From a virus: 64,000 nt of DNA. The notes under the pieces are model-generated. The model did no database searches. It had not been told where the DNA came from and saw only the letters and a program-made list of their open reading frames with translations. The stretch covers positions 61,433 to 125,432 of IMG/VR virus record IMGVR_UViG_3300036832_001166; one strand, given 5' to 3'. A program made the position numbers and the translations under genes. The first letter of the stretch is position 1. Each line of letters begins with the position of its first letter. Below are positions 28,107-54,573 of the stretch, one piece after another.

Positions 28107-29834
28107 ATGACCGTCTCCGACGCGTTCCTGGACGCGCTGGAGTCAGACATCGCCGCGCACGAGCAGCGTCGCGCCAGCTTCCTGGAATGGGCGGTCAAGG
28201 TCCCCGAGACTCGCGGCCCGCTGAACTTCACCCGCTGGCCGTTCCAACGCGAGCTGTACGAACAGGGCTTCGACGACAAGGAGGTCGTCGTCATGAAGGC
28301 CACGCAGCTCGGGATCTCCGCGTGGCTCGTTCGCTGGGCGCTGTGCTGGGCCGACATGCACGCCGCCCGCGTCCTGTACATCTTCCCTCGCGAGCGGCAG
28401 CTCCTGGACTTCTCCGACGGCCGGATCAAGCCGCTTATCTTGGGTGAGTACCTGAGGACTCGCGTGCCGCCCGCGTCGGTGCAGAACAAGACCCTGAAGT
28501 CGGTCGGCCTGGGGATCATCTACTTCCGCGGCTCCGAGGCCGAGGCCGGACTGGAGTCCATCGACGCTGATGCGCTGTGCCTCGACGAGCACGACCTGCT
28601 GGTGCAGGCGCACATCCCGGTCGCTGAGCGCCGCGTCGGCGGCCAGGACTCGCTCGGCATGATCCGCCGGATCGGCTTCCCGACCATCAGCGACCACGGG
28701 ATCCACAAGGAGTACAAGAAGACCGACCAGCGCGAGTGGACGGTCCGCTGCGAGTTCTGCGGCGAGTGGCAGGCGCTGACGTGGGCGGAGAACGTCGACC
28801 TGGAGCGCGCGATCCGGGTCTGCCGCAAGTGCCGCAAGGGCCCGCTCGACGTCGCCACCGGCGAGTGGGTCGCGACGCACCCGAGCCGGACCCGGCGCGG
28901 CTACCACGTGACGAAGCTGCTGCTCCCCCGCCCCGAGATCGTCGGCTCGCTGATCGAGGCCAGCCACGAGCAGGTCGCCTACCAGCGCCAGATCTTCTTC
29001 AACCGCGATCTCGGCGAGCCGTGGGAGGCCGAGGGCGCCCGGCTAACCCCGGCGATGATCGCCGCGGCGCAGCGCGGCTACACGCAGCTCACCGCCTACA
29101 CCGGCACCAACCCGGTGGTCATGGGCGTCGACGTCGCGTCGGTCCGCGCGCTGAACGTGTGGATCACCGAGCAGCTCTCCGAGACGCAGGGCCGTGTGCT
29201 GTGTCTCGGCCTGGTCGACAGCTTCGATGAGCTGGCCAAGCTCATGGACCGCTACCGGGTGGTCATGGCCGGGATCGACCATCTGCCTGAGAACCGGCTG
29301 GCGCAGGCGTTCGCGAACCGGTTTGCCGGGCGGGTGTACATCATCAGCTACGGCACCGAGACGCAGCGTGACGTGCTCTCCGTCGACGATCAGCAGCGCC
29401 GCGCGTCAGTCCGGCGCACCGAGGCGATCGACGCTGCTCAGGAGCGCGTCCGCGCGCAGCACGAGTACCTGCCGCAGGATCTGCCGACGGCGTTCGTGGA
29501 GCAGATGTGCTCCAATGTCCGCTCGGTCGAGCGCGACGACGTCGGCCGGGTGCGGGTGCGCTATCGCGCCGACGGCCCGGACGACTGGATGCAGGCGCTT
29601 ACGTACGCCATCGTCGCGAACGAGTGCTGGTGGATCCGCCAGCAGGTCGACCACGAGGAGATCACCTCCATCGACGAGATGACCGAGCTGGGGTTCGAGC
29701 GTTCGACGCTGCGCGACCCGGAGTCGATGGAGTACAGCCCGGGGCGCTCCGACGGCGACTACCAGCTTCACGACGGGCACGTCAACGGCAGCACGAACGG
29801 GTACGACGACGAGTTCGACGCCTGGGGCGAATAG
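28107..29834 (+). CDS. terL: Terminase large subunit (lambda GpA-like)
   Basis: VVMKATQLGIS (Walker A variant), LCLDEHD (Walker B), CEFC...CRKC Zn motif, VVMGVDV and DDWMQA nuclease motifs. Confidence 0.9.
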   Translation: MTVSDAFLDALESDIAAHEQRRASFLEWAVKVPETRGPLNFTRWPFQRELYEQGFDDKEVVVMKATQLGISAWLVRWALCWADMHAARVLYIFPRERQLLDFSDGRIKPLILGEYLRTRVPPASVQNKTLKSVGLGIIYFRGSEAEAGLESIDADALCLDEHDLLVQAHIPVAERRVGGQDSLGMIRRIGFPTISDHGIHKEYKKTDQREWTVRCEFCGEWQALTWAENVDLERAIRVCRKCRKGPLDVATGEWVATHPSRTRRGYHVTKLLLPRPEIVGSLIEASHEQVAYQRQIFFNRDLGEPWEAEGARLTPAMIAAAQRGYTQLTAYTGTNPVVMGVDVASVRALNVWITEQLSETQGRVLCLGLVDSFDELAKLMDRYRVVMAGIDHLPENRLAQAFANRFAGRVYIISYGTETQRDVLSVDDQQRRASVRRTEAIDAAQERVRAQHEYLPQDLPTAFVEQMCSNVRSVERDDVGRVRVRYRADGPDDWMQALTYAIVANECWWIRQQVDHEEITSIDEMTELGFERSTLRDPESMEYSPGRSDGDYQLHDGHVNGSTNGYDDEFDAWGE

Positions 29835-31081: not shown

Positions 31082-32476
31082 CAATGAAGTTGTGGTCAGA
31101 GAGGCCACACGATCCGACCGAGGAGCTGAGATGGCCAGACGACAGATCATGGACGGCACCGAGCAGGTCGCCGTCGAGGGCTACACCGGCCGCGTCAAGG
31201 TGATCGTCGAGGGCGACGACATCGTCGCCATCGCCTGCGCCTGGTTCGCGCGCTGCGAGAACGAGGCCACCACCACCCGGTCGCACCCGATCCTGGGTGA
31301 GGCCCCCATCTGCGGCCGCTGCGACGCGCGGGTCGAGGAGCTGTCGTGACCTACTCCGCCCGGGAGCTGCGCGTCGTGGACAACAACACGCGCGACTACG
31401 AGGGCGGCTACACCGTCGAGCGCGGCAACGTGATCGTTGCCGGGCCGTACGCCAGCAAGACCGACGCCAAGCAGGCCAAGGCCGATCTCGTTGCCGGACG
31501 CACCGTCCGAGCGGCGGGCTAACACCACCGACCGAGGAGACCACGTGACCACCACCACCGAGAAGATCCTGGACGCCGAGGCGGCCGACGCCGCCACGAT
31601 GAACTCCTGGAGCGACCGCAACCCGGCGACGATCGTCAAGCGAACCGCGAAGACGATCTGGGTCCAGGAGGACCGCGTCGCGAACCTGAGCAGCGAGGAG
31701 AGCCGCGAGAGCGGGCTCACCTTCGCCCGCGGGCACGGCGACGTCGTCATCTTCGTTCGCGACTACGACTCGCCGATCCGGAAGTACTCGCTGCGCAAGA
31801 ACGGGCGCTGGATTCAGCAGGGCGCCCCGGCCAACGCGCGGGGCGGCTCCCTGACCGTCGGGCGCCGCGACTACTACCGGGATCCCTCGTTCTGATGAAC
31901 CGCTACCAGACCGGCTACGGTGCCGGGAAGGTCCACCTTGGTGAGGCCGCCCGGCGCCATCGCTTCTACACGATCCTGTACTGCACAGGCCGCGCCGTGA
32001 GCGGCGCGTACACCACCGGCGCCGCCGTGGACTGCAAGGCGTGTCTCAAGCGCGCCAAGGCCAACGGCATCGACCCGACCGAGGAGACCTGATGACAAGC
32101 ACACGACCCCTGGGCAGCATCCAGCGCCACGTCCTGACGTCACTGGAGCGCGAACCGTGGCCCGGCGGCTGGATCTGGGAGAACGCTTCCACGACCGCCC
32201 GCGTTCTCGACTCGTTGGTCAAGCGCGGGCTCGCCTCGCACACGGACGGTGGCCCGTACCGTCGTGGCCGCTACCGCATCACCGAGGCGGGCAAGGAGGC
32301 GCTGACGGCGTGACCGAGCCGGTTCTCCGCCGTCGCTGCCGCATCTACGTCGATGGCGTCTACGTCGGCTGGGTGGTCAAGCGCGAGGGCCGGTTCCGCG
32401 CGTACGTCACGCACCCGCAGGGCGGCTTCATGAGCGTCGAGGGCAGCTCGCGCCGCGCCGCCGCACAGAACGCCTG

Positions 32477-32495
32477 GAGCGCACGATGTGTGCTA
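32477..32495 (+). promoter_or_regulatory. Operator/extended -10 promoter inside the 3' end of the preceding gene
   Basis: GAGCGCAC-GAT-GTGTGCTA + GACT. Confidence 0.75.
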
Positions 32496-33719
32496 GACTC
32501 ACTGTACAAGGAGCAATCGACCGAGGAGCCGAAATGAGCGTGAAGATCCGCGCCGTGTACCGCCTTGAGCCCGCCGGGCTCATAGACCGCACCGATGCGC
32601 GCGTGACGGCGTACGCCGGACGCGAGGTGCAGATGATCCAGCCGTGGGGCTGTCCCCGCAACGGGACGATGGGGATGGTGTACGTCCAGCTCGCCGAGGA
32701 GGGCGAGTTCATCGGGCTCGTCAGCAAGGCGTCGCTGGTCAAGACCGGCCGCACCGCACCGGTGCGCGACCTGGCCGCCGAGGCCCGCGACGCGCGCAGC
32801 CGCGCTCTGCTGGGGCGCTGACGTGAAAATCACCGACGAGCTGGTGCAGCAGGCGTGCCTCGCCTACGGCGGGGACGCCTTCCCCGGGCGCATGCGCCGC
32901 GCGCTGGAGGTGGCGCTCGCCGACGCGCAGCCCGGCCTGCGCGCACCGATGCTGGAGCTGGAGAAGCTCCAGAAGCTCGCGCGCGAGGCCGTTGAGATCT
33001 GGCAGGCCGGATCCGCCATGTACTCCGCCCACGAGTATGAGACCGCGATGGGCGACCTTGCCCGCGCGCTCCCGCCCAAGCCGCATGCACCGATCGAGAG
33101 CCAGCCAGGAGACCCATTCTGATGAGGCACGTCGCAGGTGACATCGTGTTCCAGGTGAGGGGAGTGAAGGTGCGCTACTCGCCGTCGCAGGGCACGTCGA
33201 CGCGCTACCGCACCTTCTGCCCGCACGAAGTCGGGGTCAACTCCCGCACGCGGGCAGACGCCGTTGACGCTGCCCGCCACGCGGGCGACTGGTGCGCCGA
33301 GTGCGCGGCCGAGGGCCAGCCCGGGTACGACGATGCCTGAGCTGGTGACCTGCACCGTCTGCGGCGACGAGGACACGCTCACGTTCTCGGGCGACATCGG
33401 CGCGCGGATGCGCGAGCGCCGCGAATGCTTCCGCTGCGCGTTCTGGCTGACGCTGGCTGAGCTGGACAAGGCGGCGCCCGAGAACGTCGCGATCATCGGC
33501 GGCTGCCACTACATCATCGCGCCGGACCGCACCACCGGTCCCCCCTCGCTGGCGGGCATGGGTGGCGCGCGGTGCGTCATCGCCTTCCACGACGGCCGCG
33601 AGCGGGTCACGCACAACCTGTGGCACCAGGGCACTATCCCTGACCGCTTCCGCGACCTGTTCCCGGACAACGCATCCTGGGGCGAGACGGGGCGACTCAC
33701 GACCCGCCAGAGAACACCG

Positions 33720-41248: not shown

Positions 41249-43315
41249 GTGGCACGTGAATGGGTGACCCGGCTGCAAGAGGCCGCCGAGGTGCGGACAG
41301 GCAAGAAAGTCGTGGATACCGACTACATCGAGCTGCTTGAGGCAAGCGATGTGGAACGGAGGTCCATGCAGAAAGAGCTGGACCTCTTAGGGTGGTATGT
41401 ATTAGACTATATTGGAGGCCAGCCTCAGGAGGTCAAGCCCCAGGAGCGGCGCCGGATGGCCGCTCAAGCCCGGATGGTGTGGGTGCAGGATCCGGTCGCC
41501 GGGGCGAACGTCGAGCTGTCCTGCAACTTCATCTTCGGCCGCGGCGTCCCCAAGCCGAAGGCCGCCGACGAGAAGGTGCAGGAGGTCATCGACGAGGCGT
41601 GGGATGACCCGGACAACAAGGCGGTCCTGACCACCTATCCGGCGCAGGTGGCGCTCTGCACCGACCTGGTGCTGCAGTCCAACCTGTTCCTGCTGTTCTT
41701 CCAGGGCGACGACGGCAAGGTCAAGCTCGGCCTGCTCGACCACGACTCCGTCGAGGACGTCGTCCGCGACTCCAACAACCGGCTGCGCGTCCTGTACTAC
41801 GTCGCCCGGCGCCGCGTCTACGGCTGGGACTTCGAGAATGACCGCCCGTCGATCAAATCTCAGATGGACCAGCAGGACCCCAGCAAGCCGCGCGTCCAGT
41901 ACTACCAGGCGCTCGCCGCCACCGACACCGAGACCGGCGAGCTGGACACCGAGGATGACCCGTGCCCGCCTAACAAGCTCGCCGAGGGGCTCGTCTACCA
42001 CATTGCGATCAACCGCGGCTCCGAGCAGGTGTTCGGCGTCCCGGCGATGCGCCGACTCGTGAAGTGGATGGCGGCCCTGAACGATTTCATGGCGGCGCGC
42101 GTGGACCTGACGCAGGCCGCGGCCGCGTTCATCATGCGCCGGTCGGTGAAGGGCTCGCCGCAGCAGGTGGCGAACATCGCGGCCAAGGCCATCTCCCGCC
42201 GCTCCAACCTGGCCGCCACCTCGGTCGACGATCCGACGATGGGGCTCGTCCAGGCGGGCCCGCGGCCCGGCTCGATCCTGAACGACTCCGACTCGGTCAC
42301 GACGCAGCCGTTCACCGTCCCGACGCAGGCGCCGCAGGCGGCGCAGGACGCGCAGATGATCCGCTCTCAGATCAGCGCTGCGACGTGGCCGCAGCACTAT
42401 CTCGGCGACCAGTCCAACGCGAACCTGGCGACAGCGACCGCGCTGGAGCTGCCGGTCGTCAAGAAGGTCGAGGCGTTCCAGGAACTCTTCGAGGGCCTGT
42501 TCCGCACGTTCATCGACCGGTCCATCCAGCAGGCCGTCGACAACGGCAAGCTGCCGACGTCGCTGACGCCGGAGGAGCGCGCCCGGCTGAAGTCCAAGAA
42601 GCCGGAGAACCAGGTGCCGGGCGCGCCGGGGATCACGCCGCCCGCCGCGCCGATCCAGACCGAGCCGCCGGAGTCACAGACCGAGCCGAGCACCAACGGT
42701 GCCGGGCCGACCGCGTTGAGCGCGGGCTACGAGGGTCAGACCGAGGACGAGGAGGACACGGAGCGGGATCTCTCGTACGAGTTCTCGATGCCGAGCGCGC
42801 TGAAGCGTCAGATGGCCGATTTGATCAACTCGATCGCGAACATTGCTCGCACCTTCGATCCGAACAACACCAACGTCGAACTCTCCCGCACCTTGCTGGG
42901 CGTCGCGCTCGGCCAGGGCCTGGAGCTGGCCGACCCGGCGGCCGCCGTCGAGCGGATCCTGCCCGAGGGCTACGTCGACCCGATGCTCGCCGCGCAGATG
43001 CAGGCTGCTGGTGGCGCGGCGCCGCCTGGCGCTCCGCCCGGTGGACCGCCGCCGCTGCTGCCGGATCAGCCGAATATGTTCGGGCCCGGCGGCCCGGCGC
43101 CCGGTGAGGGTCCAACGCCTGGTCAGGGCCCTGACGGTGAGCAGAACCCCTACGGCGCTCAAGGCTTCTCCAGCGAGTACCAGGGCAGCCAGGGCCAGAT
43201 GAATCAGGCGTCCGAGCGCCAGGGGACGCTGGAGGCCTTGCTGGAGCAGGAGCTGGGCGAGATCGTCGACGGGCTGCTGGCCGACCCAGCCGTGAACGGC
43301 GACGGCGGCGGATAG
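41249..43315 (+). CDS. Portal protein with Pro/Gly/Gln-rich C-terminal extension
   Basis: About 690 aa between terminase and MuF-like gene; DPVAGANV...FIFGRG, NRGSEQVFGVPAMRRLVKW, PQHYLGD.SNANLATA. Confidence 0.75.
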   Translation: MAREWVTRLQEAAEVRTGKKVVDTDYIELLEASDVERRSMQKELDLLGWYVLDYIGGQPQEVKPQERRRMAAQARMVWVQDPVAGANVELSCNFIFGRGVPKPKAADEKVQEVIDEAWDDPDNKAVLTTYPAQVALCTDLVLQSNLFLLFFQGDDGKVKLGLLDHDSVEDVVRDSNNRLRVLYYVARRRVYGWDFENDRPSIKSQMDQQDPSKPRVQYYQALAATDTETGELDTEDDPCPPNKLAEGLVYHIAINRGSEQVFGVPAMRRLVKWMAALNDFMAARVDLTQAAAAFIMRRSVKGSPQQVANIAAKAISRRSNLAATSVDDPTMGLVQAGPRPGSILNDSDSVTTQPFTVPTQAPQAAQDAQMIRSQISAATWPQHYLGDQSNANLATATALELPVVKKVEAFQELFEGLFRTFIDRSIQQAVDNGKLPTSLTPEERARLKSKKPENQVPGAPGITPPAAPIQTEPPESQTEPSTNGAGPTALSAGYEGQTEDEEDTERDLSYEFSMPSALKRQMADLINSIANIARTFDPNNTNVELSRTLLGVALGQGLELADPAAAVERILPEGYVDPMLAAQMQAAGGAAPPGAPPGGPPPLLPDQPNMFGPGGPAPGEGPTPGQGPDGEQNPYGAQGFSSEYQGSQGQMNQASERQGTLEALLEQELGEIVDGLLADPAVNGDGGG

Positions 43316-43367: not shown

Positions 43368-45068
43368 TTAGCGAACGACGCTGGCCCGCACGCGCACCAC
43401 GCGGCGGTTGAGCATCACACGCAGGACGTGCCCGCGATGCACCTGGCGCGTCGCCCGAGCGACGATCACGCCGTGAGCGGACAGCTCACGCAGCGCGACC
43501 CGGCACACCTCGGCGTTGCCGCGGATCCGGAGCAGCAGCTCCGGGCGCAGCACGCCGTTGACGCGCACCAGGATCACGCGAGCGATCACGACGCACTTGT
43601 TGCCGTGAGCGATCGGCTCAACGACCGGCGTTGGCGTCACCGTGATCGGCGGCGTTGACGTCGGCAGCGTGGTCGGCGCCGTGGTGGTGGCACCGGTGCC
43701 CGACCCGATCACCGGAGCGGTCGTGGCCGTGCCGGTGGTGGCGTTGGTGAACGACGCCTCGGTCACGCCCGTGCCGACGAGAACCTTGAGCAGTCGCCCG
43801 CCCAGGTCGGCTGAGACCAGATCGGCCGCCGGGTCAGACGCCTCGGCGATCACGGACAGCCCGGCGGTCGCGGCCTCCTGGACCGACACTGTCGAGTTGA
43901 ACGCGAACTTGCCCGCGATGGCGCAGTAGCCCGCTGGCACGTCGAGGTTCTGGGTGCCGTTGATCACGAAGTGGAACACCTGGCCCACCGTGACACCGAC
44001 GCCCGCGTTCTTGCAGACCTTCAGGAGCTGGTCAGAGACCACCTGATCGGTGTAGGACACGACCGTCTCGCCCGAGCCGAGGATGACCGACACCTTGCGG
44101 TTGGGCAGGTCGATCGAGCCCGGCACCTGGCGGTTGTTTGACACGTCGATGGCGGACACGTCGGTCCCGGGGGTGATGCCCTCCTGGATGTCGACGCGCG
44201 TCCCGCCGGAGAACGGCGTCTGCACCAGCGCGCAGCCGCCCGGAGCGGCCTGCGCGACGGCCGAGACCGTCTGGCCGTTGGCGGTGAAGCTGAACACCGT
44301 CCCGACCAGCGACGGGGTTCCGGCGATCTTGCAGATCTTCAGCCGCGACGTCGAGTTCACGAACGTCTCGATCGTCTCGTTGTTGACGTCTGCGCCCGGC
44401 GCGATCCGCACCTGGCTGGTACCGGCGGACAGGTTGTCGGTGATCAGATCGCCTGCGTTGACCGTGGACACGCTGACCACGTCGGTGTCGTTGGCGCCGA
44501 TCTCATCGACCTCGATGTTCCCGGCGGGCACGCGAAGCGAGTTGGTGCATGCTCCCACGGGAACGCTGACCGTCTGGCTGAAGCCAAACGGCCCGGTGAT
44601 CTTGAACGAGAACGAGCCGGTCAGGCCCGACCCGGTCTGCGCCGACTTGCAGATCTCCAGATGGCCGAACTGCGCCTGGTTGGTGACCTCAAGCGTGGTG
44701 GTGTTGCTCACATCCCCCGCCGGGACGCTCACGACCGCCGAACGGTTCGCCAGGCTCGACGAGATAAGCCGGTCAGCCGGGATCGTGTCCACCGCGGTCT
44801 GGGCCGAGGCGGCCGTCCCGGACTCGACGATGCTGTGGTTGCCCGCCGCCACCTGCAGCGGCGCCGAACACCCGCCCGAGTTGACACTGACCGACGGCCC
44901 GTTATCGACCGAGAACGCAAACGGGCCCGACACCGGGTCCACCGACGTCGACTTCTTACAGATCTCCAGGTAGCCCGTCTGGGCCACCGTGGCCGAGGCG
45001 AGCGCGGGAAATACCGCGAATGCCAGCGCGATCAATGTCGCGCAGCCCAACAGTGCTGCTTTCTTCAT
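43368..45068 (-). CDS. Secreted protein with four Cys-bridged Ig/prealbumin-like repeats (moron)
   Basis: Signal peptide MKKAALLGCATLIALAFAVFPALA; repeats GYLEICK, GHLEICK, SRLKICK, QLLKVCK, each with a second Cys (SGGCS, VGACT, PGGCA, AGYCA); Thr/Pro linker; opposite strand to the structural genes. Confidence 0.8.
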   Translation of the reverse strand: MKKAALLGCATLIALAFAVFPALASATVAQTGYLEICKKSTSVDPVSGPFAFSVDNGPSVSVNSGGCSAPLQVAAGNHSIVESGTAASAQTAVDTIPADRLISSSLANRSAVVSVPAGDVSNTTTLEVTNQAQFGHLEICKSAQTGSGLTGSFSFKITGPFGFSQTVSVPVGACTNSLRVPAGNIEVDEIGANDTDVVSVSTVNAGDLITDNLSAGTSQVRIAPGADVNNETIETFVNSTSRLKICKIAGTPSLVGTVFSFTANGQTVSAVAQAAPGGCALVQTPFSGGTRVDIQEGITPGTDVSAIDVSNNRQVPGSIDLPNRKVSVILGSGETVVSYTDQVVSDQLLKVCKNAGVGVTVGQVFHFVINGTQNLDVPAGYCAIAGKFAFNSTVSVQEAATAGLSVIAEASDPAADLVSADLGGRLLKVLVGTGVTEASFTNATTGTATTAPVIGSGTGATTTAPTTLPTSTPPITVTPTPVVEPIAHGNKCVVIARVILVRVNGVLRPELLLRIRGNAEVCRVALRELSAHGVIVARATRQVHRGHVLRVMLNRRVVRVRASVVR

Positions 45069-45349: not shown

Positions 45350-48300
45350 ATGGCCGTCGCAGACCCGCAGCCGCCGGAACAGCAGCTTCATCCGGACGCG
45401 CAGCGGATCATCACCGCGGCGCAGACCGGCGCGGCGATCAGCACTGGCGGACAGGTTGCGAAGGCGGCGACCGTAGGTCCGGCGATCGCGGCGTCAGCAC
45501 CCGCGGTCGCCGCGGGCAAGATCGTATCGGCGGGCGTCGAGACCGCGGAGTTCGGCATCAAGGTCGCGCTCGCGCTCCGGATCCTGCGCAAGCTGTTCAA
45601 AGGCCACAAGATGGAGTCGGCGACGTGGCTGGAGAACGAGCTGCGCCGACGCTTCCCGAACGCTGACCCGGCCGTGATCCGCGCGGCGGTGCAGCGCGAG
45701 ATGCAGTTTGAGCAGGCGTTCCAGCGCAAGGCGCTGGCGCGGACCGAGCGTGACATGCACGCCGCCGGGCAGCTCCCGACGCCGCAGGCGCGCGCCAAGC
45801 GTGCCGGGGAGATCATCGCCCGCGAGAAGCACTACAACGCGCTGCGCGAGCAGGCGCTGCTGAACCGGGCGATCGCGCACGTGGAGAACGCCGGGGTCAA
45901 GGCCGTCTCGCCGGACGGCGCGAGGTGGGTGCTGGGCCAGCGCAAGAATCACACGCTCGGCTGCCTGGCGCTGGCCGGGAAGAACTGGCCGTGGGAGGTG
46001 CTCGACACGATCCCGCCGCCGCTGCACACCGGCTGCGGCTGCAGCCTTCAGCCACTGAAGCCCGGCGACACGGTGCCGCCGGTGGCGGACGCGATACGCG
46101 CCGCACGCGCGGCGATGGCGCTGGAGGAGGCCGTCCGCAGCGTCGCTGACGCCGGGGAGATCGACGCCTACCTAGCGGGCCAACCCGCCCGGCCGAGCGT
46201 CTCCAGGGCCCTGGAAATGCTCCAGGAGGCCCGCTACGACGAGGTACTCCACCCACGCGGCCGCGGCGGCCGATGGATCGAGAAGCTCGGCAAGGCGAAG
46301 CTGAAGGTCAAGCCGACCTACGAGGAGCAGGGCGGGTTCACCGGCAAGCGGCTGACCAAGCCTCAGGTGCAGTCGGTCGTGCGCCGCGTGGCGGAGGGAG
46401 TGGTCGACTTCTACGGCGGCGACAAGAAGGCGGTCAACGCCAACTACGACCAGGAGTACACGGCGACCAAGGGCGTCGACGCGCAGTTCCGCCACCCAGA
46501 GGAGGTCTTCCCCGGGATCGCCTACGGCCAGAACGTGGCCGACAAGATCCGCGAGCCCGACATGGGGCTGATCGGCCTGCGGCAGATCGCGCATGAGGCG
46601 GCGCACTCGCTGTCGGGCAACCGGCCTGGACCGCTGCCCGGATTCGCGCAGCATTTTGAGGAGGGCGGCGCGGAGATCCTGTCGATCTGGTTCTGGCATC
46701 ACCGGATGCAGGAGCTTGACCATCGCGACGCGGTCCGCGCGGGCAGCAAGTGGACGGCGCCGGGCGCCGAGACGCTGGCGCACAGCGTGGTCTACCGCAA
46801 CTGGACCGAGGAGTTGATGCGCCGGGCGGCGAGCAAGGTCGGCTGGGACCGCATCGCGATCGTGGATGAGGTGGAGCGCGTGATGCGCGGCGACCACACC
46901 GTCCGGCTGCACTTCCGTGACGAGACCGACCCGAGCTTCGACCTGCCGAAGGATCTGCCCGACGTCGCGAAGGGTGATCACCGCGGCGATGAGGAGGGCG
47001 ACAACGCCGTCGCGCTGATGAAGTGGCTGGTCGACGATGCGGGCGAGCTGCGGGAAGCGGAGTTCACCGAGCGGCTGCATCCGCGCGACCGGCTCGGCAA
47101 GTTCAGCGAGACGCTGCACCGGCTGCACACGATCACGCGCCAGGACGTCGAGGCGGGCCGCGCTCCCGGTCTGAGCGTGTCCGGTGATCTCAGCCCCGGC
47201 GTCGCCGGTCACGCTGGGATTGGCGGGAAGGGGATCCGGCTCAGCCCAAGCTCGTTCGACAAGGAGGGCCGCGTCAGCTCGGCGCTCGTCGCTCACGAGG
47301 CGGGGCACTATCTCGTCAACGACATCATCAAGGACGGCAAGGTCCCCGACGCGCTGGAGCATTACCGCGCCGGATACGGTTACGCCGGTGGCCGCTACCG
47401 GGGCGCTGGGCAGACGATCCTGTTCCGCAACCCGTGGAAGGCGGACGAGGGCGACCGGCCCGAGGAGATGCTCGCGGACGCCTACAGCGCGCTGTTGCAC
47501 GGCGAGAACGAGTTCAGTTACACGCCTGGGCTCGACGGGCCCGACGACCCCGAGTCGCGCGAGCAGGCACGCCAGGAGTTCGAGGCCAGTCCGAAGCACA
47601 AGCTGCTGGACGTCGTAGCGAAGGCGGCGCGCGACGCGGGCTGGCCGGACAAGGCCTTGTACCGGTGGGAGGCCAGCGGCCCGATGTCCAACCGCCAGTA
47701 CCAGCTCAAACTCCGCGAGGCGCACTGGACCGAGTGGCTGCATCCACGCGGCCGCGGCGGAGCGTGGGTCGACGCGATCCACCACGAGATCAAGGAGCCC
47801 AAGGCCGAGGAGCCGCACGAGGGCTTCACCGGCGAGGACTTCGCCCGGGCGATGGACGGCTTTGAGCACGGCGGGATCGTGGCGGTCCGCGCCAACCGCA
47901 CGCAGGTTCAAAACCTGTACGGCGAGGTGTGGCTGAACCTGCAGCGGCCGAGCGAGCCGCGGCCGGTCGGGCTGGCGCGCGTGATCGTCAAGCCGCCGAA
48001 CCACCGTGGCGAGCGCGTCGCGGAGCTGGCGAACATCTACCTGCACGAGGATCAGCAGAGCCAGGGGTTTGGCCGGGCGTTCACCGACCATCTGCTCAGC
48101 ACGCTGCGCGACGGCGGCGTGGACCGCATCAACGTCGAGGCGGTGTCCGTCGGCGGCTACGCGTGGGCGCGCCGCGGGTTCGTGTGGACGGCCGACAAGA
48201 AGGCCGAGCAGCAGCGGATCGTTGCCGACGCGAAGACCGACGGCCGCTGGTCAGAGATCGCCCGGCACACGCTACCGGCGGCGCTGGCCGAGTTTGAGCG

Positions 48301-48490
48301 CAAGATCGACGCCGGGGAGTTCTCGTCGGAGGCGGAGCTGGCCGCCTACGGCATCGACCGGCCGTGGCGCGAGCACGACCTGGAGACCGGCGCGCAGATC
48401 GGCCCGCTGACGTGGCTCGGCAAGCAGCTCATGCTCGGCTCGCGCTGGAAGGGATCACGCCCCGTTGTCGTAGCTCAAGACGTGCGCTAG
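45350..48490 (+). CDS. MuF-like head morphogenesis protein fused to two zincin peptidase modules and a GNAT acetyltransferase
   Basis: CLAL...PPPLHTGCGC (MuF PPxHxxCxC); IAHEAAH...FEEG; VAHEAGH...EEMLADAY; LHEDQQSQGFG...GGYAWARRGF; three LHPR linkers. Confidence 0.8.
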   Translation: MAVADPQPPEQQLHPDAQRIITAAQTGAAISTGGQVAKAATVGPAIAASAPAVAAGKIVSAGVETAEFGIKVALALRILRKLFKGHKMESATWLENELRRRFPNADPAVIRAAVQREMQFEQAFQRKALARTERDMHAAGQLPTPQARAKRAGEIIAREKHYNALREQALLNRAIAHVENAGVKAVSPDGARWVLGQRKNHTLGCLALAGKNWPWEVLDTIPPPLHTGCGCSLQPLKPGDTVPPVADAIRAARAAMALEEAVRSVADAGEIDAYLAGQPARPSVSRALEMLQEARYDEVLHPRGRGGRWIEKLGKAKLKVKPTYEEQGGFTGKRLTKPQVQSVVRRVAEGVVDFYGGDKKAVNANYDQEYTATKGVDAQFRHPEEVFPGIAYGQNVADKIREPDMGLIGLRQIAHEAAHSLSGNRPGPLPGFAQHFEEGGAEILSIWFWHHRMQELDHRDAVRAGSKWTAPGAETLAHSVVYRNWTEELMRRAASKVGWDRIAIVDEVERVMRGDHTVRLHFRDETDPSFDLPKDLPDVAKGDHRGDEEGDNAVALMKWLVDDAGELREAEFTERLHPRDRLGKFSETLHRLHTITRQDVEAGRAPGLSVSGDLSPGVAGHAGIGGKGIRLSPSSFDKEGRVSSALVAHEAGHYLVNDIIKDGKVPDALEHYRAGYGYAGGRYRGAGQTILFRNPWKADEGDRPEEMLADAYSALLHGENEFSYTPGLDGPDDPESREQARQEFEASPKHKLLDVVAKAARDAGWPDKALYRWEASGPMSNRQYQLKLREAHWTEWLHPRGRGGAWVDAIHHEIKEPKAEEPHEGFTGEDFARAMDGFEHGGIVAVRANRTQVQNLYGEVWLNLQRPSEPRPVGLARVIVKPPNHRGERVAELANIYLHEDQQSQGFGRAFTDHLLSTLRDGGVDRINVEAVSVGGYAWARRGFVWTADKKAEQQRIVADAKTDGRWSEIARHTLPAALAEFERKIDAGEFSSEAELAAYGIDRPWREHDLETGAQIGPLTWLGKQLMLGSRWKGSRPVVVAQDVR
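48471..48489 (+). promoter_or_regulatory. Operator/extended -10 promoter for the CCA polyprotein gene
   Basis: TAGCTCAA-GAC-GTGCGCTA + GAAT, overlapping the upstream stop codon. Confidence 0.65.
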
Positions 48491-48502: not shown

Positions 48503-51500
48503 ATGGATTGGGCGACAGCAGCGGCGATCGTGGCGGACAGGACACCGAGCCTGTCCGATCCACCCGACGCGCCAGGGGATGACCATGAGTTCTGGCAGCG
48601 GGTCAAGACGCTCGTCGACGGCGACGGCGACAGCATCGCGCTGAGCGAAGCCGAGCGCTACGACGAGATCCTGCACCCGCGCGACCGCAGCGGCAAGTGG
48701 ATGGCGAAGCTGGGGCTCTCGCATCTCCGCGAGGTCGGCGGAGCGCCGCGCGACGAGCTGCTCGGCAAGATCCCCAAGGACATCGACTACGTCGCCGCCG
48801 AGACCCCGGAGCGGATCAAGCAGGCGGTCGAGCAGGCAGGCGGGAAGACCGAGGAGCTGATGGTCCGCGACCGGCTGGTCGGCGTCCGCGCTACGCACCC
48901 GGCGTTGCCCGTCGGTGGCGTCGAGATCGTTCCCCCACGCGTGGAGGCGAGCACCGGGCCGGGGCGACACGACTTCGAGATCGTGCCGCACCCGGACCTG
49001 TATAGCCACGCCGAGCCGGGCCACGCTATGCCTCGCCACGCCCCACCCCGCCGAGCCGGGCCAGACCTCGCCGGGCCAAGCCCAGAGCAGGTTAGCCGGA
49101 TGCTGGCCGACGACGCGCAGCGTCGCGACTTCACGATCAACACTCTGCTGAGAGATCCCGCGACCGGCCAGCTCACCGACCCGACCGGCCACGGCGAGCA
49201 GGATGCGCGCAACCGGGTGTTGCGCATGGTTCACGACACGAGCTTCCAGGAGGACCCGCTGCGCATGCTGCGCGGTGCGCGCTTCGTCGCCCAGCACGGG
49301 CTGGAGCCCGACGCCGGGACGCTGGCAGCGATGCGCCGCGACTCCGGCGGGATGACCGCGCTGACCAAGAAGGGCGTCTCCGGGACCGTCCAGGACGAGC
49401 TGCGCAAGCTGCTGATGGGCGAGCACCCGGGCAAGGGTCTGCGGCTGATGCGCGACACCGGCATGTTCCAGACGCTGCTGCCCGAGCTGGCGCCGATGGT
49501 CGGATTTGATCAACGTTCGATCTACCACGAGCACGTGCTGGACGAGCACACGTTCAACGTGATCGACGAGCTGGCGCGGATGGGCGCGAGCCACGACGCG
49601 CGGCTGGCGGCCCTGTTTCACGACAGCGGCAAGCCGCTGACCGCCAACCTCAAGCCTGACGGCACGTACCGCTTCCACTCTCACCCCGAGCACGGCGACC
49701 ACGCCGACGTCGGCGCTGACATCGCGCGCCGCACGCTGAACCGCCTGAACTACCCGGCGGACACGATCAGCCACGTCACCGGGCTCGTCCGCGAGCACAT
49801 GCTCACCGCCGTCGAGAAGCCGACGCCGGTCAAGGCCCGCCGTCTGCGCGCCGCTCACTCCGACCGGTTCCTGACCGACCTGCTGGACCACAAGCAGGCC
49901 GACATGGAGGGCCACGGCGAAACGATCGCCAAGAGCCTGGAGGGCGTCCACAAGCTGCGCGACCTGCTGGCTGAGAACGCGCAGGCGCCGCGGTCGCTGA
50001 AGGATCTGAAGATCGACGGCCGCGACCTGATCGCGCAGGGCGTCGAGCCCGGGCCGCGGCTGGGCGCCATCCTGCGCCAGCTCCTGACCGAGGTGGTGCT
50101 CAACCCGGACCTGAACCGCCGCGAATGGCTGCTGCAGCGCGCCGAGCGCCTGGCCGTCACGCCGATGCAGGAGAGCGTCTACTCCGAGCTGCTGCATCCG
50201 CGTGACCGCGCGGGGAAGTGGATCGCGGGACGCCGGAAGCTTGTCGACCTGGACGCTATCGCCAGCCGCGCGCACGCCGGGCAGGTCGACAAGTCGGGGC
50301 GCCCGTACATGGAGCATGTGCGCGCCGTCGCCGACTCGGTCAAGCCCGAGGCGCGGCCGGTCGCGTTCATGCACGACGCGCTGGAGGACACGCAGATGGC
50401 CCCGCAGGATCTGGAGGGGGTCCTGGAGCCGCACGAGATCGAGGCGGTCAAGCTGCTGACCCGGCCGAAGGGCGACGGGATGAGCTACGACGCCTACATC
50501 GAGAAGATCGCGACGGCGCCCGGCCCGGCTGGGGAGCTGGCGCGCGAGGTCAAGGCCGCTGACCTGAACCACAACCTCGGCCGGATGAGCAACCTCGACG
50601 CGAAGACGCAGGCGCGGCTGCGTCCGCGCTACGAGGCGGCTATCGCGCGGCTGTCACCGGCGCCGCACCCGTTTCAGCAGGCGGGCGACCCGGAGAACTT
50701 CGCGGGCGTCACCCGCGAGCAGGCCGAGGCGCACCTCCGGCGGCTGTATGAGATCAGCCTGCGCTCACCCGAGCATGCCGCCAATCTTGCGTGGTACGAC
50801 ACGCAGCATGCGCTGATCCAGGATGTGGCCGCAGAGCACGGCGTCGACCCGGTCACGATGGCAGCAGCGATCTCGGCGACGTCGCCCCAACTCGCGTGGG
50901 ATCACACGTCGAAGGCTGGTGTGTTCACCCGCCCGAACCTGAGCCTGGCGCTCAACGCCCTGCGGCTCGCGCGCGCCTTCCCGGACGAGCCCGCGCCGCT
51001 GCTGGTCGAGCGGCTGCTGGCGGCGGCGGAGGGCCAGAAGGGCCCGAGCGAGGTTCAAGGTCTCGGCAGCTCGGTGGAGAAGGCGATCAGGATCTTTCGC
51101 GGCGAGGATCCCGACAAGGTGCTGACCGCACCGAAGACCCGGTCGTTCTACAACAACCTCGTCTGGCCCGAGCTGAGCACAACGGTCACCGTCGACGCGC
51201 ACATGGCGCGCGCCGGGCTGGGGATCCTGGAGAAGAAGGGCTACGCGCAAGCGGACAAGGCCATCGAGGAGAAGGCCAAGGGATCCGGCTACACGTGGAT
51301 GGCGAACCGCATCGAGGCGATCGCGCGCGAGTTCGGCGTGCTCCCCCACCAGGCCCAGGCCGCGATCTGGGTCGAACGCAAGCGCGAGTCAGACGAGGTC
51401 GAGCGGCTGGCCAAGGAGGCCGAGAAGAAGCGGTGGGCGAGCCTGACGAAGGAGGAGCAGGCGGCGGAGCGCGCGGCGAAGAAGGCCGAGCGCGAGCGCA

Positions 51501-51586
51501 AGAACGCCGAGAAGGCAGCCAAGAAGGAGGCGCGCCAGGCCGCCGGTCTCAAGGTCGCCAAGCGCGAGCACTACAAAGGCTCATGA
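48503..51586 (+). CDS. Polyprotein: CCA tRNA nucleotidyltransferase with HD domain + (p)ppGpp-hydrolase-like HD domain + HhH-GPD glycosylase-like domain
   Basis: VGGAPRDELLG..PKDIDY, DDAQRRDFTIN, FQEDPLRMLRGARF, ALFHDSGK, LKIDGRDL..G..PGP; AHAGQVDKSGRPYMEH...MHDALEDT...VKAADLNHN; AWYD...SATSPQ..W...KTRSFY.N...VTVDAHM...QAAIW. Confidence 0.85.
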   Translation: MDWATAAAIVADRTPSLSDPPDAPGDDHEFWQRVKTLVDGDGDSIALSEAERYDEILHPRDRSGKWMAKLGLSHLREVGGAPRDELLGKIPKDIDYVAAETPERIKQAVEQAGGKTEELMVRDRLVGVRATHPALPVGGVEIVPPRVEASTGPGRHDFEIVPHPDLYSHAEPGHAMPRHAPPRRAGPDLAGPSPEQVSRMLADDAQRRDFTINTLLRDPATGQLTDPTGHGEQDARNRVLRMVHDTSFQEDPLRMLRGARFVAQHGLEPDAGTLAAMRRDSGGMTALTKKGVSGTVQDELRKLLMGEHPGKGLRLMRDTGMFQTLLPELAPMVGFDQRSIYHEHVLDEHTFNVIDELARMGASHDARLAALFHDSGKPLTANLKPDGTYRFHSHPEHGDHADVGADIARRTLNRLNYPADTISHVTGLVREHMLTAVEKPTPVKARRLRAAHSDRFLTDLLDHKQADMEGHGETIAKSLEGVHKLRDLLAENAQAPRSLKDLKIDGRDLIAQGVEPGPRLGAILRQLLTEVVLNPDLNRREWLLQRAERLAVTPMQESVYSELLHPRDRAGKWIAGRRKLVDLDAIASRAHAGQVDKSGRPYMEHVRAVADSVKPEARPVAFMHDALEDTQMAPQDLEGVLEPHEIEAVKLLTRPKGDGMSYDAYIEKIATAPGPAGELAREVKAADLNHNLGRMSNLDAKTQARLRPRYEAAIARLSPAPHPFQQAGDPENFAGVTREQAEAHLRRLYEISLRSPEHAANLAWYDTQHALIQDVAAEHGVDPVTMAAAISATSPQLAWDHTSKAGVFTRPNLSLALNALRLARAFPDEPAPLLVERLLAAAEGQKGPSEVQGLGSSVEKAIRIFRGEDPDKVLTAPKTRSFYNNLVWPELSTTVTVDAHMARAGLGILEKKGYAQADKAIEEKAKGSGYTWMANRIEAIAREFGVLPHQAQAAIWVERKRESDEVERLAKEAEKKRWASLTKEEQAAERAAKKAERERKNAEKAAKKEARQAAGLKVAKREHYKGS
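48959..49082 (-). ncRNA. Antisense GGY-NN array (16 perfectly phased pentamers) plus 3' hairpin, inside the CCA-enzyme coding sequence
   Basis: Minus strand GGCTT GGCCC GGCGA GGTCT GGCCC GGCTC GGCGG GGTGG GGCGT GGCGA GGCAT AGCGT GGCCC GGCTC GGCGT GGCTA (49082-49003); 14-bp stem with one bulge at 48995-48959. Confidence 0.65.
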
Positions 51587-51595
51587 TGTGTGCTA
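51577..51595 (+). promoter_or_regulatory. Degenerate operator/extended -10 promoter
   Basis: AGGCTCAT-GAT-GTGTGCTA + CGAT. Confidence 0.6.
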
Positions 51596-51607
51596 CGATG
51601 GAGTCAT

Positions 51608-53272
51608 ATGATCAGTGACGACCCGCAGCCACTCGACGTCTACGACGGGCCGCTGGACCTGGAGTTGCCCGAGTACGACCTGCAGGAGTGGGCGGGCGGC
51701 GGGGATCTCGACGCGCTGGTCGACAACCTGACCAGCGAGCCGCTGCAGGAGGCGTTCGATCCGACACAGCCGCGCTTCCCGAAGGGCCACGCCCGCGCCG
51801 GGCAGTGGCGCCCCAAGCTCGCGCCCGAGCTGGCCGACGTGCTGGAGAAAGACCTGAAGCCGATCCGCGACAAGATCGACCGGATACACGCCGTCACCGA
51901 CAACGACGACGAGCCCGGCTGGGTCGGCCGCGCCGACGCGCAGAACCTGCAGGCGCTCGGCGACATGCTCGGCACGCTCGCCGCCAAGCACTCGACGTTC
52001 ACCGCCTACCACGACCGCCGCAAGGCGCAGGAAGCCAAGTGGGCGGACCTTGACGAGGAGCGCTACCGCACCCTGAAGCAGCTCGACTCGTACCTGATCG
52101 ACCCGCAGTCCAAGGGGAACGTCATCAGCGACTGGACGGACCGCGCCGGACGCCTGATCGACAGCCCCGAGCGCCAGGCCGAGCGCCAGAAGCTGCTGGA
52201 CCGCGTCGACGAGCTGAACCAGCAGCAGACCGACATCCAAGCCGAGGTGACCCGGCTGGGGGAGGCCGAGAAGCGCGCGCGCCGCGACGCCATCGTCGGC
52301 GTGATCGCGAAGATCCGGCCGATGGGCGGCAAGATCGACACCAGCGTGGGGACCGTCGCGGGCGTGGGGCTGCCGTCGGTGATGACCGAGCACGCACAGG
52401 AGCACGTGCGCGAGATCCAGCGGCTCATTCCAACCGACTGGATCGACGACATGAACCGCGCTGGGACGCTCAAGATCCAGATCCACCAGCCGCCGTTCCG
52501 CGCCTACCACCAGAGCCAGACGCACACCGTCCGCGCCCGGCCAACGAAGGGCGGCGCGCCACCGATCACCCCCGAGCAGCTCGACAGCATCGACTGGGCG
52601 CACAAGGAGGGCGGCGAGTACGTCGGCATGTACGACAACCGCTGGCCGGTGATCCGGCGGCCCGGTACGACGGAGGGCGGCATCGGCCCGAACGCCGCGA
52701 TCTACGACTGGGTCAACGACAACGGCGCGATGCGCAACCTCACGTTCGGTATCCCCGCCGCGGAGGGCCGCGCCGCGGAGGCATACCACCCGGACAAGCT
52801 GAACCGCGAGGCGCCGCTGCCGCCGGTGTCCGAGCAGACGACCGTCGACTCCACCATCCACATGACGTCGGACTCGCCTGCGGCGATCTTCCTGCACGAG
52901 ACGCTGCACCGCGTCCAGGCTGTCCCCGGCTCGCGCACGCTGTCACAACTGGACCCGACCAAGGCGACGAGCACCGTCCGCCACCGTGCCGAGTACAACT
53001 ACCTCACGTGGCGCAGCGGCGGCAGCAACGCGCAGCCCGAGAAGCTCACCGACCTGCAGCCCAACAGCGGCTACGAGGAGCACGAGATGTCGATCCCCGA
53101 CCGGTGGCCCTCGCCGTACTACGGCAAGGTGTACAGCGGCGGCTACGGCGCCACCGAGTACAACGAGCTGCTGACGATGGCGATCCAAGATCTCTACTAC
53201 GACCCGGCGACGCTGTGGGCCACCGACCAGGAGACCTACCAGTGGGCGCTTGGCCTGCTGGCGGCCACATGA
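51608..53272 (+). CDS. Linker-led coiled-coil plus zincin metallopeptidase protein
   Basis: Acidic leader, LQEAFDPTQPRFPKGHARAGQW linker variant, coiled coil, FLHETLHRVQ...YYGKVY...YNELLTMAIQDLY. Confidence 0.75.
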   Translation: MISDDPQPLDVYDGPLDLELPEYDLQEWAGGGDLDALVDNLTSEPLQEAFDPTQPRFPKGHARAGQWRPKLAPELADVLEKDLKPIRDKIDRIHAVTDNDDEPGWVGRADAQNLQALGDMLGTLAAKHSTFTAYHDRRKAQEAKWADLDEERYRTLKQLDSYLIDPQSKGNVISDWTDRAGRLIDSPERQAERQKLLDRVDELNQQQTDIQAEVTRLGEAEKRARRDAIVGVIAKIRPMGGKIDTSVGTVAGVGLPSVMTEHAQEHVREIQRLIPTDWIDDMNRAGTLKIQIHQPPFRAYHQSQTHTVRARPTKGGAPPITPEQLDSIDWAHKEGGEYVGMYDNRWPVIRRPGTTEGGIGPNAAIYDWVNDNGAMRNLTFGIPAAEGRAAEAYHPDKLNREAPLPPVSEQTTVDSTIHMTSDSPAAIFLHETLHRVQAVPGSRTLSQLDPTKATSTVRHRAEYNYLTWRSGGSNAQPEKLTDLQPNSGYEEHEMSIPDRWPSPYYGKVYSGGYGATEYNELLTMAIQDLYYDPATLWATDQETYQWALGLLAAT

Positions 53273-53937: not shown

Positions 53938-54573
53938 GTGCCAGGCGTGAGCCTGAACGGGCGCCTGACCGCCAGTGAGCTGTCCCCCATCGCGGGTGGC
54001 GTGCTCGCTCACGATGCCGCCGCCGCGTGGAACGCCATGAACGTCGAATGTCGCCGCCGTGGTGTCGAGCTGCGACCCAACGGCAGCAAGTCCAGCTACC
54101 GCACCTACGCGCAGCAGGTCGAGCTGTGGGAGCTGTACACGTCGGGCCGCGGCAGCCTTGCCGCGCACCCCGGCACCTCGAACCACGGCTGGGGGCTCGC
54201 CGTCGATCTCGCCACGCGCGAGATGCGCGCCATGCTCGACCAGGTCGGCAACCCGTACGGCTGGAGCAAGGCGACGTCCGACGCTCAATCGGAGTGGTGG
54301 CATATCGCCTGGCGCACCGGATCATGGCGCGGCCCTGACCCCGGGCCCTACGGTCAGACGACACCACCCCCCACACCCCTACCTCAAGGAGCCAAGATGG
54401 CGGATCTCGTCGCCGTCCTCAAAGACAACAAGGCCATCGAACTGTTCGTGCTCGACGACAAGGGCACCGTCTGGCACGCCTGGCAGACCGCCCCCAACGG
54501 CGGCTGGGCGGGCGCCGAAGCAGGCAAACGCAACGCCGCCTGGTACTCGTTGGGCGCGCCCGGCAAGCCATGA
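53938..54573 (+). CDS. Endolysin: M15/VanY-type peptidase with a C-terminal lectin-like repeat
   Basis: SSYRTYAQQ...AAHPGTSNHGWGLAVDL...SEWWHI; IELFVLDDKGTVWHAWQTAPNGGW...WYSLG resembles a beta-propeller lectin repeat. Confidence 0.85.
   Translation: MPGVSLNGRLTASELSPIAGGVLAHDAAAAWNAMNVECRRRGVELRPNGSKSSYRTYAQQVELWELYTSGRGSLAAHPGTSNHGWGLAVDLATREMRAMLDQVGNPYGWSKATSDAQSEWWHIAWRTGSWRGPDPGPYGQTTPPPTPLPQGAKMADLVAVLKDNKAIELFVLDDKGTVWHAWQTAPNGGWAGAEAGKRNAAWYSLGAPGKP

Follow-up and report, generated by a model that had tools for sequence, protein, structure and literature searches.

Why does a soil phage that carries no tRNA genes encode, within its head-gene block, one protein that joins a CCA-adding type of enzyme to an alarmone-type hydrolase? 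The locus lies in IMG/VR virus record IMGVR_UViG_3300036832_001166, of which positions 61,433 to 125,432 were analysed (64,000 nucleotides, called the window in what follows; positions are those of the window unless marked otherwise). An earlier note on this DNA had described, at 48641-50660, a CCA-adding enzyme paired with a SpoT/Mesh1-type HD module, and had proposed that the pair reverses host attacks on tRNA 3′ ends and the stringent response from the moment of injection. Every motif of that interval falls within a single open reading frame (ORF), 48503-51586 on the + strand, which encodes 1027 amino acids (aa). We find that this ORF is a phage-type polyvalent protein, with a domain combination that is new within that known class. 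The domain-level description of the protein is solid; the mechanism of counter-defence is plausible and unproven.

The ORF is clearly coding, with a third-position guanine plus cytosine (GC) fraction of 0.91; it starts 13 nucleotides past the stop of the upstream ORF and ends 4 nucleotides ahead of the next. From the N-terminus, the order is a leader, the motif LHPRDRxGKW, a class II tRNA nucleotidyltransferase with its HD domain, a second copy of the motif, an RSH-type HD hydrolase, DUF7178 and a Lys/Glu tail (Table 1). The translation reads GGAPRD...DID, RRDFTIN, EDPLRMLR and FHDSGK, and then AHAGQVDKSGRPYMEH...HDALED...KAAD. Pfam matches, all above the curated cut-offs, were found for the PolyA_pol head (2.6e-16), PolyA_pol_RNAbd (7e-10), HD (2.5e-8), tRNA_NucTran2_2 (8.8e-8) and DUF7178 (2.9e-19), and PHROG matches for tRNA nucleotidyltransferase (1.9e-51) and for the metal-dependent phosphohydrolase phrog_990 (1.1e-27, residues 581-720). 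With this backing from Pfam and PHROG, the nucleotidyltransferase and second HD motifs quoted in the earlier note are not chance; its domain identities and intact catalytic residues are borne out, and the residues are conserved across homologues. Its interval holds the motifs, but covers residues 47-720 of the 1027 and leaves out DUF7178 and the charged tail. AlphaFold models built from homologue alignments reached a mean pLDDT (predicted local distance difference test) of 81.8 for residues 1-566 and 85.1 for residues 560-1027.

Table 1. Features of the 1027-aa ORF and of its neighbourhood, in window positions
Feature	Position	Strand	Basis or remark
Whole ORF, polyvalent multi-enzyme protein, 1027 aa	48503..51586	+	Third-position GC 0.91
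N-terminal leader, residues 1-56, predicted disordered	48503..48670	+	Kept in relatives; pLDDT <50 at residues 1-26 and 40-58
Junction motif 1, LHPRDRSGKW, residues 57-66	48671..48700	+	Motif search
Class II nucleotidyltransferase head, residues 78-241, GGAPRD...DID and RRDFTIN	48734..49225	+	Pfam, alignment
Pentamer insert in head-domain loop, about 25 aa, in-frame	49003..49082	.	Absent from relatives in alignment A2
PolyA_pol RNA-binding (neck/body) region, residues 296-331	49388..49495	+	Pfam, alignment
CCA-enzyme HD phosphoesterase domain, residues 347-447; H349, H373 and D374 invariant	49541..49843	+	Pfam, alignment
tRNA_NucTran2_2 C-terminal domain, residues 497-545	49991..50137	+	Pfam
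Junction motif 2, LHPRDRAGKW, residues 564-573, disordered linker	50192..50221	+	Motif search, model
Aph1-like RSH-type HD hydrolase, residues 576-722	50228..50668	+	7SMG match, structure comparison, phrog_990
DUF7178, residues 734-958, HhH-GPD glycosylase-like fold, conserved PKTRSF and VDxHM	50702..51376	+	Pfam 2.9e-19, structure comparison
Lys/Glu/Ala-rich helical tail, residues 966-1027	51398..51583	+	Translation, model
Terminase	28107-29834		
Portal protein gene	41249..43315	+	phrog_10963, 5.4e-30
566-aa secreted-type ORF, signal-peptide-like N-terminus, internal repeats	43368-45068	-	No Pfam match
Upstream sister polyprotein, 1046 aa, three LHPR motifs, two HExxH modules, C-terminal GNAT	45350..48490	+	Translation, Pfam, motif search
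Downstream sister, 560 aa, degenerate motif near N-terminus, C-terminal HExxH	51590..53272	+	Translation, PHROG
VanY-type D-Ala-D-Ala carboxypeptidase domain protein, right after the three polyproteins	53938-54573		

Judged by sequence, the first unit is securely a class II tRNA nucleotidyltransferase, a divergent member and not an orthologue of the cellular CCA enzyme. Motifs A (GGxxRD...DxD), C (RRDFTINA) and D (EDxxRxLR) are all present with residues invariant across 11 homologues; in the head these are G79, G80, R83, D84, D95, R207, R208, D209, T211 and N213, while motif D (EDPLRMLR) occupies residues 250-257, just upstream of the PolyA_pol RNA-binding region. The nucleotidyltransferase motifs and the HD metal ligands are unchanged in homologues down to 34% identity, and the catalytic residues of both enzyme units do not vary among homologues of 45-86% identity. 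The Pfam head, RNA-binding and C-terminal domains score 60.6, 39.0 and 32.7 bits against gathering cut-offs of 23, 22 and 27. The model matches the A. aeolicus class II enzyme (3WFP/3WFR) over its full length with a Foldseek E of 1e-16, and further matches include 6QY6, 1MIV, 4X4W and many CCA-adding enzymes. Like those class II CCA enzymes that have an HD domain (E. coli Cca, actinobacterial PcnA, A. aeolicus 3WFO-3WFS), the phage enzyme shows motifs A, C and D, an RNA-binding body, an HD domain and the same overall fold; unlike them, it has extra head-domain loops, and is embedded in a polyprotein of a phage without tRNA genes. One of these loops holds a 25-aa insert unique to this phage, encoded by 16 phased pentamers of which 15 fit NNRCC on the + strand (GGYNN on the - strand); the insert loop, residues 171-188, is predicted to be disordered.

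In sequence comparison, the second HD module has its nearest relative in Aph1, an adenosine 3′-pyrophosphohydrolase that is encoded by a Bacteroides prophage and is specific for (p)ppApp (PMC10083569). The earlier note was thus right to place it among RSH-type hydrolases, but Mesh1 and SpoT, which it had named, are more distant. Aph1 (7SMG) is the nearest solved relative by phmmer (E 2.2e-10), followed by Rel (5.4e-6) and PaSAH (1.2e-4 for 6yvc, 1.8e-4 for 6z3n). Structure comparison gave the same nearest relative, with a Foldseek template modelling (TM) score of 0.82 against 7SMG and a VIA-align Z of 19.9 (root-mean-square deviation 1.8, 138/141 residues), as against 18.0 for Mesh1 and 17.4 for PaSAH. 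Pfam HD_4 scores the module at 13.4 bits, below the gathering cut-off of 27.2; as a control, the gene that occupies the published Aph1 position in pneumophage phiARI0462 scores no more than 28.6. The RSH catalytic set (H, H, HD, ED, N, D) is complete and invariant in 15 homologues, the invariant columns in alignment A1 being H32, H46, H65, D66, E69, D70, D128 and N132.

Six residues have been reported to define Aph specificity: D24, R96, D116, R119, K133 and Y134 (PMC10083569). Equivalents of D24, R119 and Y134 occur in the module: R119 is aligned, D24 is also invariant among relatives, and Y134, which needs a one-residue shift in the phmmer alignment, is an invariant column in alignment A3. 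Two further positions carry conservative swaps, R96 to K and K133 to R, as in the validated pneumophage Aph1. The module looks to be a putatively adenosine-specific, Aph1-like hydrolase. A specificity signature of this type argues against a main role in degrading ppGpp, and the proposal that the protein reverses the stringent response is accordingly not favoured.

The phage genome is complete: it measures 125,432 bp, half of which forms the window, and has a terminal repeat of 127 bp; no tRNA genes were found in it. Downstream of the portal gene, three closely spaced multi-domain genes run in the same direction, and the 1027-aa gene is the middle one. The portal gene lies 5.2 kb upstream of it, and nothing but a reverse-strand gene and the first sister polyprotein stands between. 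Proteins of the polyvalent class (Iyer, Burroughs, Anand, de Souza, Aravind 2017, PMC5512222) likewise carry several unrelated catalytic domains per polypeptide and are encoded among virion genes near the portal. Zincin, GNAT and ParB domains next to virion genes are the signature of the phage-type members, which, those authors argued, are packaged and injected and in many cases processed by zincin domains that they themselves carry. This phage shares with the class the zincin-like HExxH, GNAT and ParB-like domains, here in sister or other tagged proteins, and the shuffling of domains between related phages. The GNAT domain of the upstream sister is a Pfam match, while the HExxH motifs of both sisters were read from the translation, without profile support. 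The same survey lists a RelA/SpoT synthetase domain as a partner and pol-beta nucleotidyltransferases for conjugative elements only; a CCA-adding enzyme is never mentioned in it (0 occurrences of ‘CCA’), whereas the present protein has one.

What the earlier note called a linker is indeed an intervening segment, but one formed by the conserved motif LHPRDRxGKW, which begins at residues 57 and 564, in predicted disordered segments both times. The phage genome has 8 in-frame copies, all in multi-domain or short-leader proteins. Relatives of the protein were found on uncultured-phage contigs, many of about 120 kb, and the motif brackets modules in every one of them, although the order and content of the modules vary; it also stands near the N-terminus of single-module proteins. 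The leader shows 48-80% identity in most relatives that retain it and 44% in P0023. In the usual relative, the leader and a first motif precede the CCA unit, and a second motif is followed by an extra module of about 100 aa, the Aph-like HD and DUF7178. That extra module, seen in P0002-P0011 between motif 2 and the Aph-like module with a consensus including DTGQDF..MAHEAARL, is absent from the protein of this phage. A word-based search for long proteins with an Aph-like module returned the same clade only.

Outside the clade, the motif occurs in gp67 of GodonK, an unrelated 122-kb Gordonia phage. This protein of 1479 aa (L085:8935-13374) is encoded directly after the portal gene and carries ALHPRGADGRWIDKLG at residue 27; the gene for a head maturation protease lies 3 kb further downstream. 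Kinship of the two phages, considered in view of their similar genome size and common motif, was rejected: the GodonK portal and terminase have no detectable similarity, and the motif is all that is shared. These occurrences suggest that LHPRDRxGKW is a portable tag of head-locus cargo proteins. Other copies in the phage suggest more tagged proteins beyond the polyprotein locus. One lies in a 602-aa protein (genome positions 31167-32975, L086:3168-4976), where two PG_binding_1 domains are followed by the motif and a ParB-like nuclease domain (ParBc_2, weak at E 0.003), and another in a 130-aa ORF near the genome start (about 669-1061, L084). The motif was not found in the literature searched, and short-peptide tblastn with it gave marginal matches only.

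Toxins that attack tRNA 3′ ends (MenT/AbiEii, CapRel, PhRel, FaRel2) are common, particularly in Actinobacteria, and to our knowledge few phage countermeasures exist besides escape mutations and substitute tRNAs. We consider it plausible that the present protein is a tool against such attacks. In the specific form that we prefer, and for which we see about equal chances of being right or wrong, the two enzymes are the front two-thirds of a polyvalent protein that is packaged and delivered, and they carry out tRNA-end repair and adenosine 3′-pyrophosphate removal in parallel. The protein would be made late and packed into the capsid, to enter the cell with the DNA, its junction motifs perhaps being cut by the zincin modules of neighbouring proteins. 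The first unit would rebuild or trim damaged 3′ ends of host tRNAs, whether these result from MenT/AbiEii-type additions, exonucleolytic loss or cyclic-phosphate ends; since the phage has no tRNA genes, host tRNAs are what the nucleotidyltransferase must act on. The Aph1-like module would remove adenosine 3′-pyrophosphates, either free (p)ppApp or the mark set on tRNA A76 by toxic small alarmone synthetases (toxSAS) of the CapRel/PhRel/FaRel2 type. The two units would act in parallel on related threats, with no obligate two-step pathway.

Each module has functional precedents. When the actinobacterial class II CCA enzyme PcnA is overexpressed, it counters MenT3, a toxin that extends tRNAs, and CCA ends are restored (PMC11541572). 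Through MESH1 and ATfaRel, tRNA that FaRel2 has pyrophosphorylated can be aminoacylated again (10.1101/2021.04.30.441581), and PaSpo of Salmonella phage SSU5 strips the toxSAS pyrophosphate from tRNA (PMC11559606). PaSpo resembles the present module in being a phage-encoded RSH-type hydrolase, and differs in being a free protein, apparently of another hydrolase subfamily. The tRNA-targeting toxSAS modify the 3′-OH of the terminal adenosine, giving a group chemically like the 3′-pyrophosphate of ppApp, so that an Aph1-type enzyme is a reasonable candidate for either substrate. With these published rescue and hydrolase activities, the counter-defence reading is, as a proposal, well grounded module by module.

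The affinity to Aph1 also bears on a different account, which we hold to be rather unlikely: the module would confer (p)ppApp immunity against a synthetase toxin of this phage, or of rival phages or prophages, and the CCA enzyme would be an unrelated booster of translation. The nearest phage relatives of the module (about 40% identity) are pneumophage Aph1 genes, which occupy the same relative position in the order terL-portal-MuF(Apk2)-small gene (IapK)-Aph1 (PMC10083569, PMC12226406). Immunity of the Aph1 type is effective against any (p)ppApp synthetase, and the adenosine-specific signature is largely kept. Aph1 and the module are both phage-borne, near portal or MuF-type genes, and share the HD/ED catalytic residues together with D24, R119 and Y134. 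Against immunity speaks the setting of the module, which is embedded in a large structural-locus protein with DUF7178 fused to it, not encoded as a small free gene. Aph1 itself is a free tetramer of about 140 aa that protects from a neighbouring Apk toxin; the module has no detectable partner toxin and lacks D116. The RelA_SpoT synthetase domain (PF04607) was not found genome-wide, an absence that is not proof because the same Pfam model misses the validated Apk2, and tblastn of pneumophage MuF-Apk2 against the genome gave nothing significant. Self-immunity to a toxin of the phage itself was therefore downgraded rather than excluded, the control having shown PF04607 to be blind to Apk2.

Returning to parallel tRNA-end repair and pyrophosphate removal by a delivered protein, several results weigh against it, and they concern first the pairing of the two enzymes. 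A CCA ORF lies within 10 kb of an Aph-like locus in 1 of 80 IMG/VR loci, and that one is a close relative; these 80 loci are dominated by pneumophage-type prophages. PF01743 was found in one of five other Aph-bearing phage genomes, where it is far from the Aph gene. Even among the relatives the two units are separable. Some combine the CCA unit with other cargo (cytidylate kinase, HicA, GNAT), others have Aph-HD and DUF7178 without the CCA unit, and P0013 and P0024 carry the two units on different proteins (both with a longest contig of 28442 bp, and so perhaps on one contig). A conserved CCA-Aph gene pair as a general rule was rejected on the counts of 1/80 loci and 1/5 genomes, and the two modules do not make up a conserved functional pair. 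It is DUF7178, and not the CCA enzyme, that accompanies the Aph-like module without exception in the relatives.

The specificities of both enzymes are a second concern. The nearest NCBIfam model of the nucleotidyltransferase unit, the actinobacterial CCA model TIGR02692, scores 146 bits against an equivalog cut-off of 438.8, and NF008137 scores 125 against 451. With scores so far under the cut-offs, neither the specificity (CCA, CC or A) nor the orthology is secured. No relative in alignment A2 has the 25-aa insert of the head domain, not even those at 74-86% identity. In the hydrolase module, the D116 equivalent is gone through a 2-residue deletion common to the clade.

The third concern is delivery. 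We infer virion packaging of the 1027-aa protein from gene position and motif only, and action from the moment of injection, as the earlier note had it, we infer from gene position and analogy only. A MuF carrier was rejected: PF04233 had no match genome-wide at E <= 1, while the same model finds MuF in the pneumophage control. This missing MuF domain, together with a major capsid gene that was not located near the locus, would fit an ordinary cytoplasmic late protein that is neither packaged nor injected, in which LHPRDRxGKW serves as a flexible linker or oligomerisation element. We regard that as improbable. The motif is preserved residue for residue between modules of varying content and order, and it recurs near the N-terminus of single-module proteins and in the portal-adjacent GodonK gp67, a pattern typical of a targeting or processing tag.

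A more far-reaching proposal, which we think unlikely to hold in full, makes LHPRDRxGKW a capsid-loading or processing tag of actinobacterial phages, and the protein a virion-delivered kit with a dedicated tRNA A76 3′-pyrophosphatase beside CCA repair, disarming CapRel/PhRel/MenT-type abortive infection ahead of all phage gene expression. If the protein is carried in the capsid, a CCA-repair enzyme and an adenosine 3′-pyrophosphohydrolase would enter the cell alongside the DNA, giving enzymatic counter-defence at time zero, and the known roles of Aph1-type enzymes would, if this is true, come to include anti-defence besides toxin immunity. For finding further cargo proteins in high-GC phages, the conserved junction motif offers a simple handle.

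The constant association with DUF7178 raises one more alternative. HD hydrolase and DUF7178 could form a DNA-directed unit, in which a glycosylase/lyase removes a modified base and the HD module cleans up the 3′-phosphate, without any link to CCA addition. In every relative that has the HD module, it is joined to DUF7178 without a junction motif. DUF7178 resembles many HhH-GPD glycosylases over its whole length: the best structure match is 3n0u (Tm1821 Ogg; Z 10.4, 182 residues aligned), followed by AGOG (Z 8.0) and five more families (Z 6-7.4, including MagIII, Mag1, OGG1, EndoIII and MutY), although this range of Z 6-10.4 is under the level that is safe for all-helical folds, where arrangement alone can match. 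The domain also has an invariant K in PKTRSFxNN and a near-invariant D in VDxHMxRA, a pair reminiscent of the Lys/Asp of endonuclease III and similarly spaced, and RSH hydrolases elsewhere have been likened to 3′-phosphatases. The fusion of HD to DUF7178 is, however, confined to this phage clade (2 of 147 DUF7178 representatives); the family counts 1418 representatives at E<=1e-3, and many of these stand alone, with a length of about 200 aa. The nearest relatives of the HD module are all alarmone hydrolases, none of them DNA-end enzymes. We judge a DNA-directed unit distinctly improbable. A literature search on DUF7178 found nothing relevant.

Phage CCA-adding enzymes, phage alarmone-type HD hydrolases (PMC7824862) and polyvalent proteins are each already known. 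For the chain of domains with its junction motif, placed in the head-gene block of a phage without tRNA genes, no description was found in the literature searched. Large lytic and jumbo phages (AS-szw; PMC7824862) can have both enzyme types in one phage, as here, but as separate small genes in early or metabolic regions, with no fusion and outside the head-gene locus. The Aeromonas T4-like phages are the exception to the scarcity of neighbouring genes described above, with a nucleotidyltransferase and an HD phosphohydrolase two genes apart, a spacing also seen in Aeromonas phage AS-szw. In Rhodococcus phage Trina, an Aph-like HD phosphohydrolase gene (L003:3992-4453) lies inside a tRNA cluster (three tRNA-Lys and tRNA-Arg) and near a gene for a Ro-type RNA-binding protein; no PF01743 nucleotidyltransferase was found in that phage. 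The Aeromonas and Trina arrangements hint at a link to tRNA biology, and do not make a rule.

The remaining genes of the neighbourhood are listed in Table 1. The N-terminus of the upstream sister polyprotein had no match in the annotated phage collection. Between terminase and portal stands a group of small genes, ArdA among them. The best PHROG match of the VanY-type protein is an internal segment of a tape-measure family.

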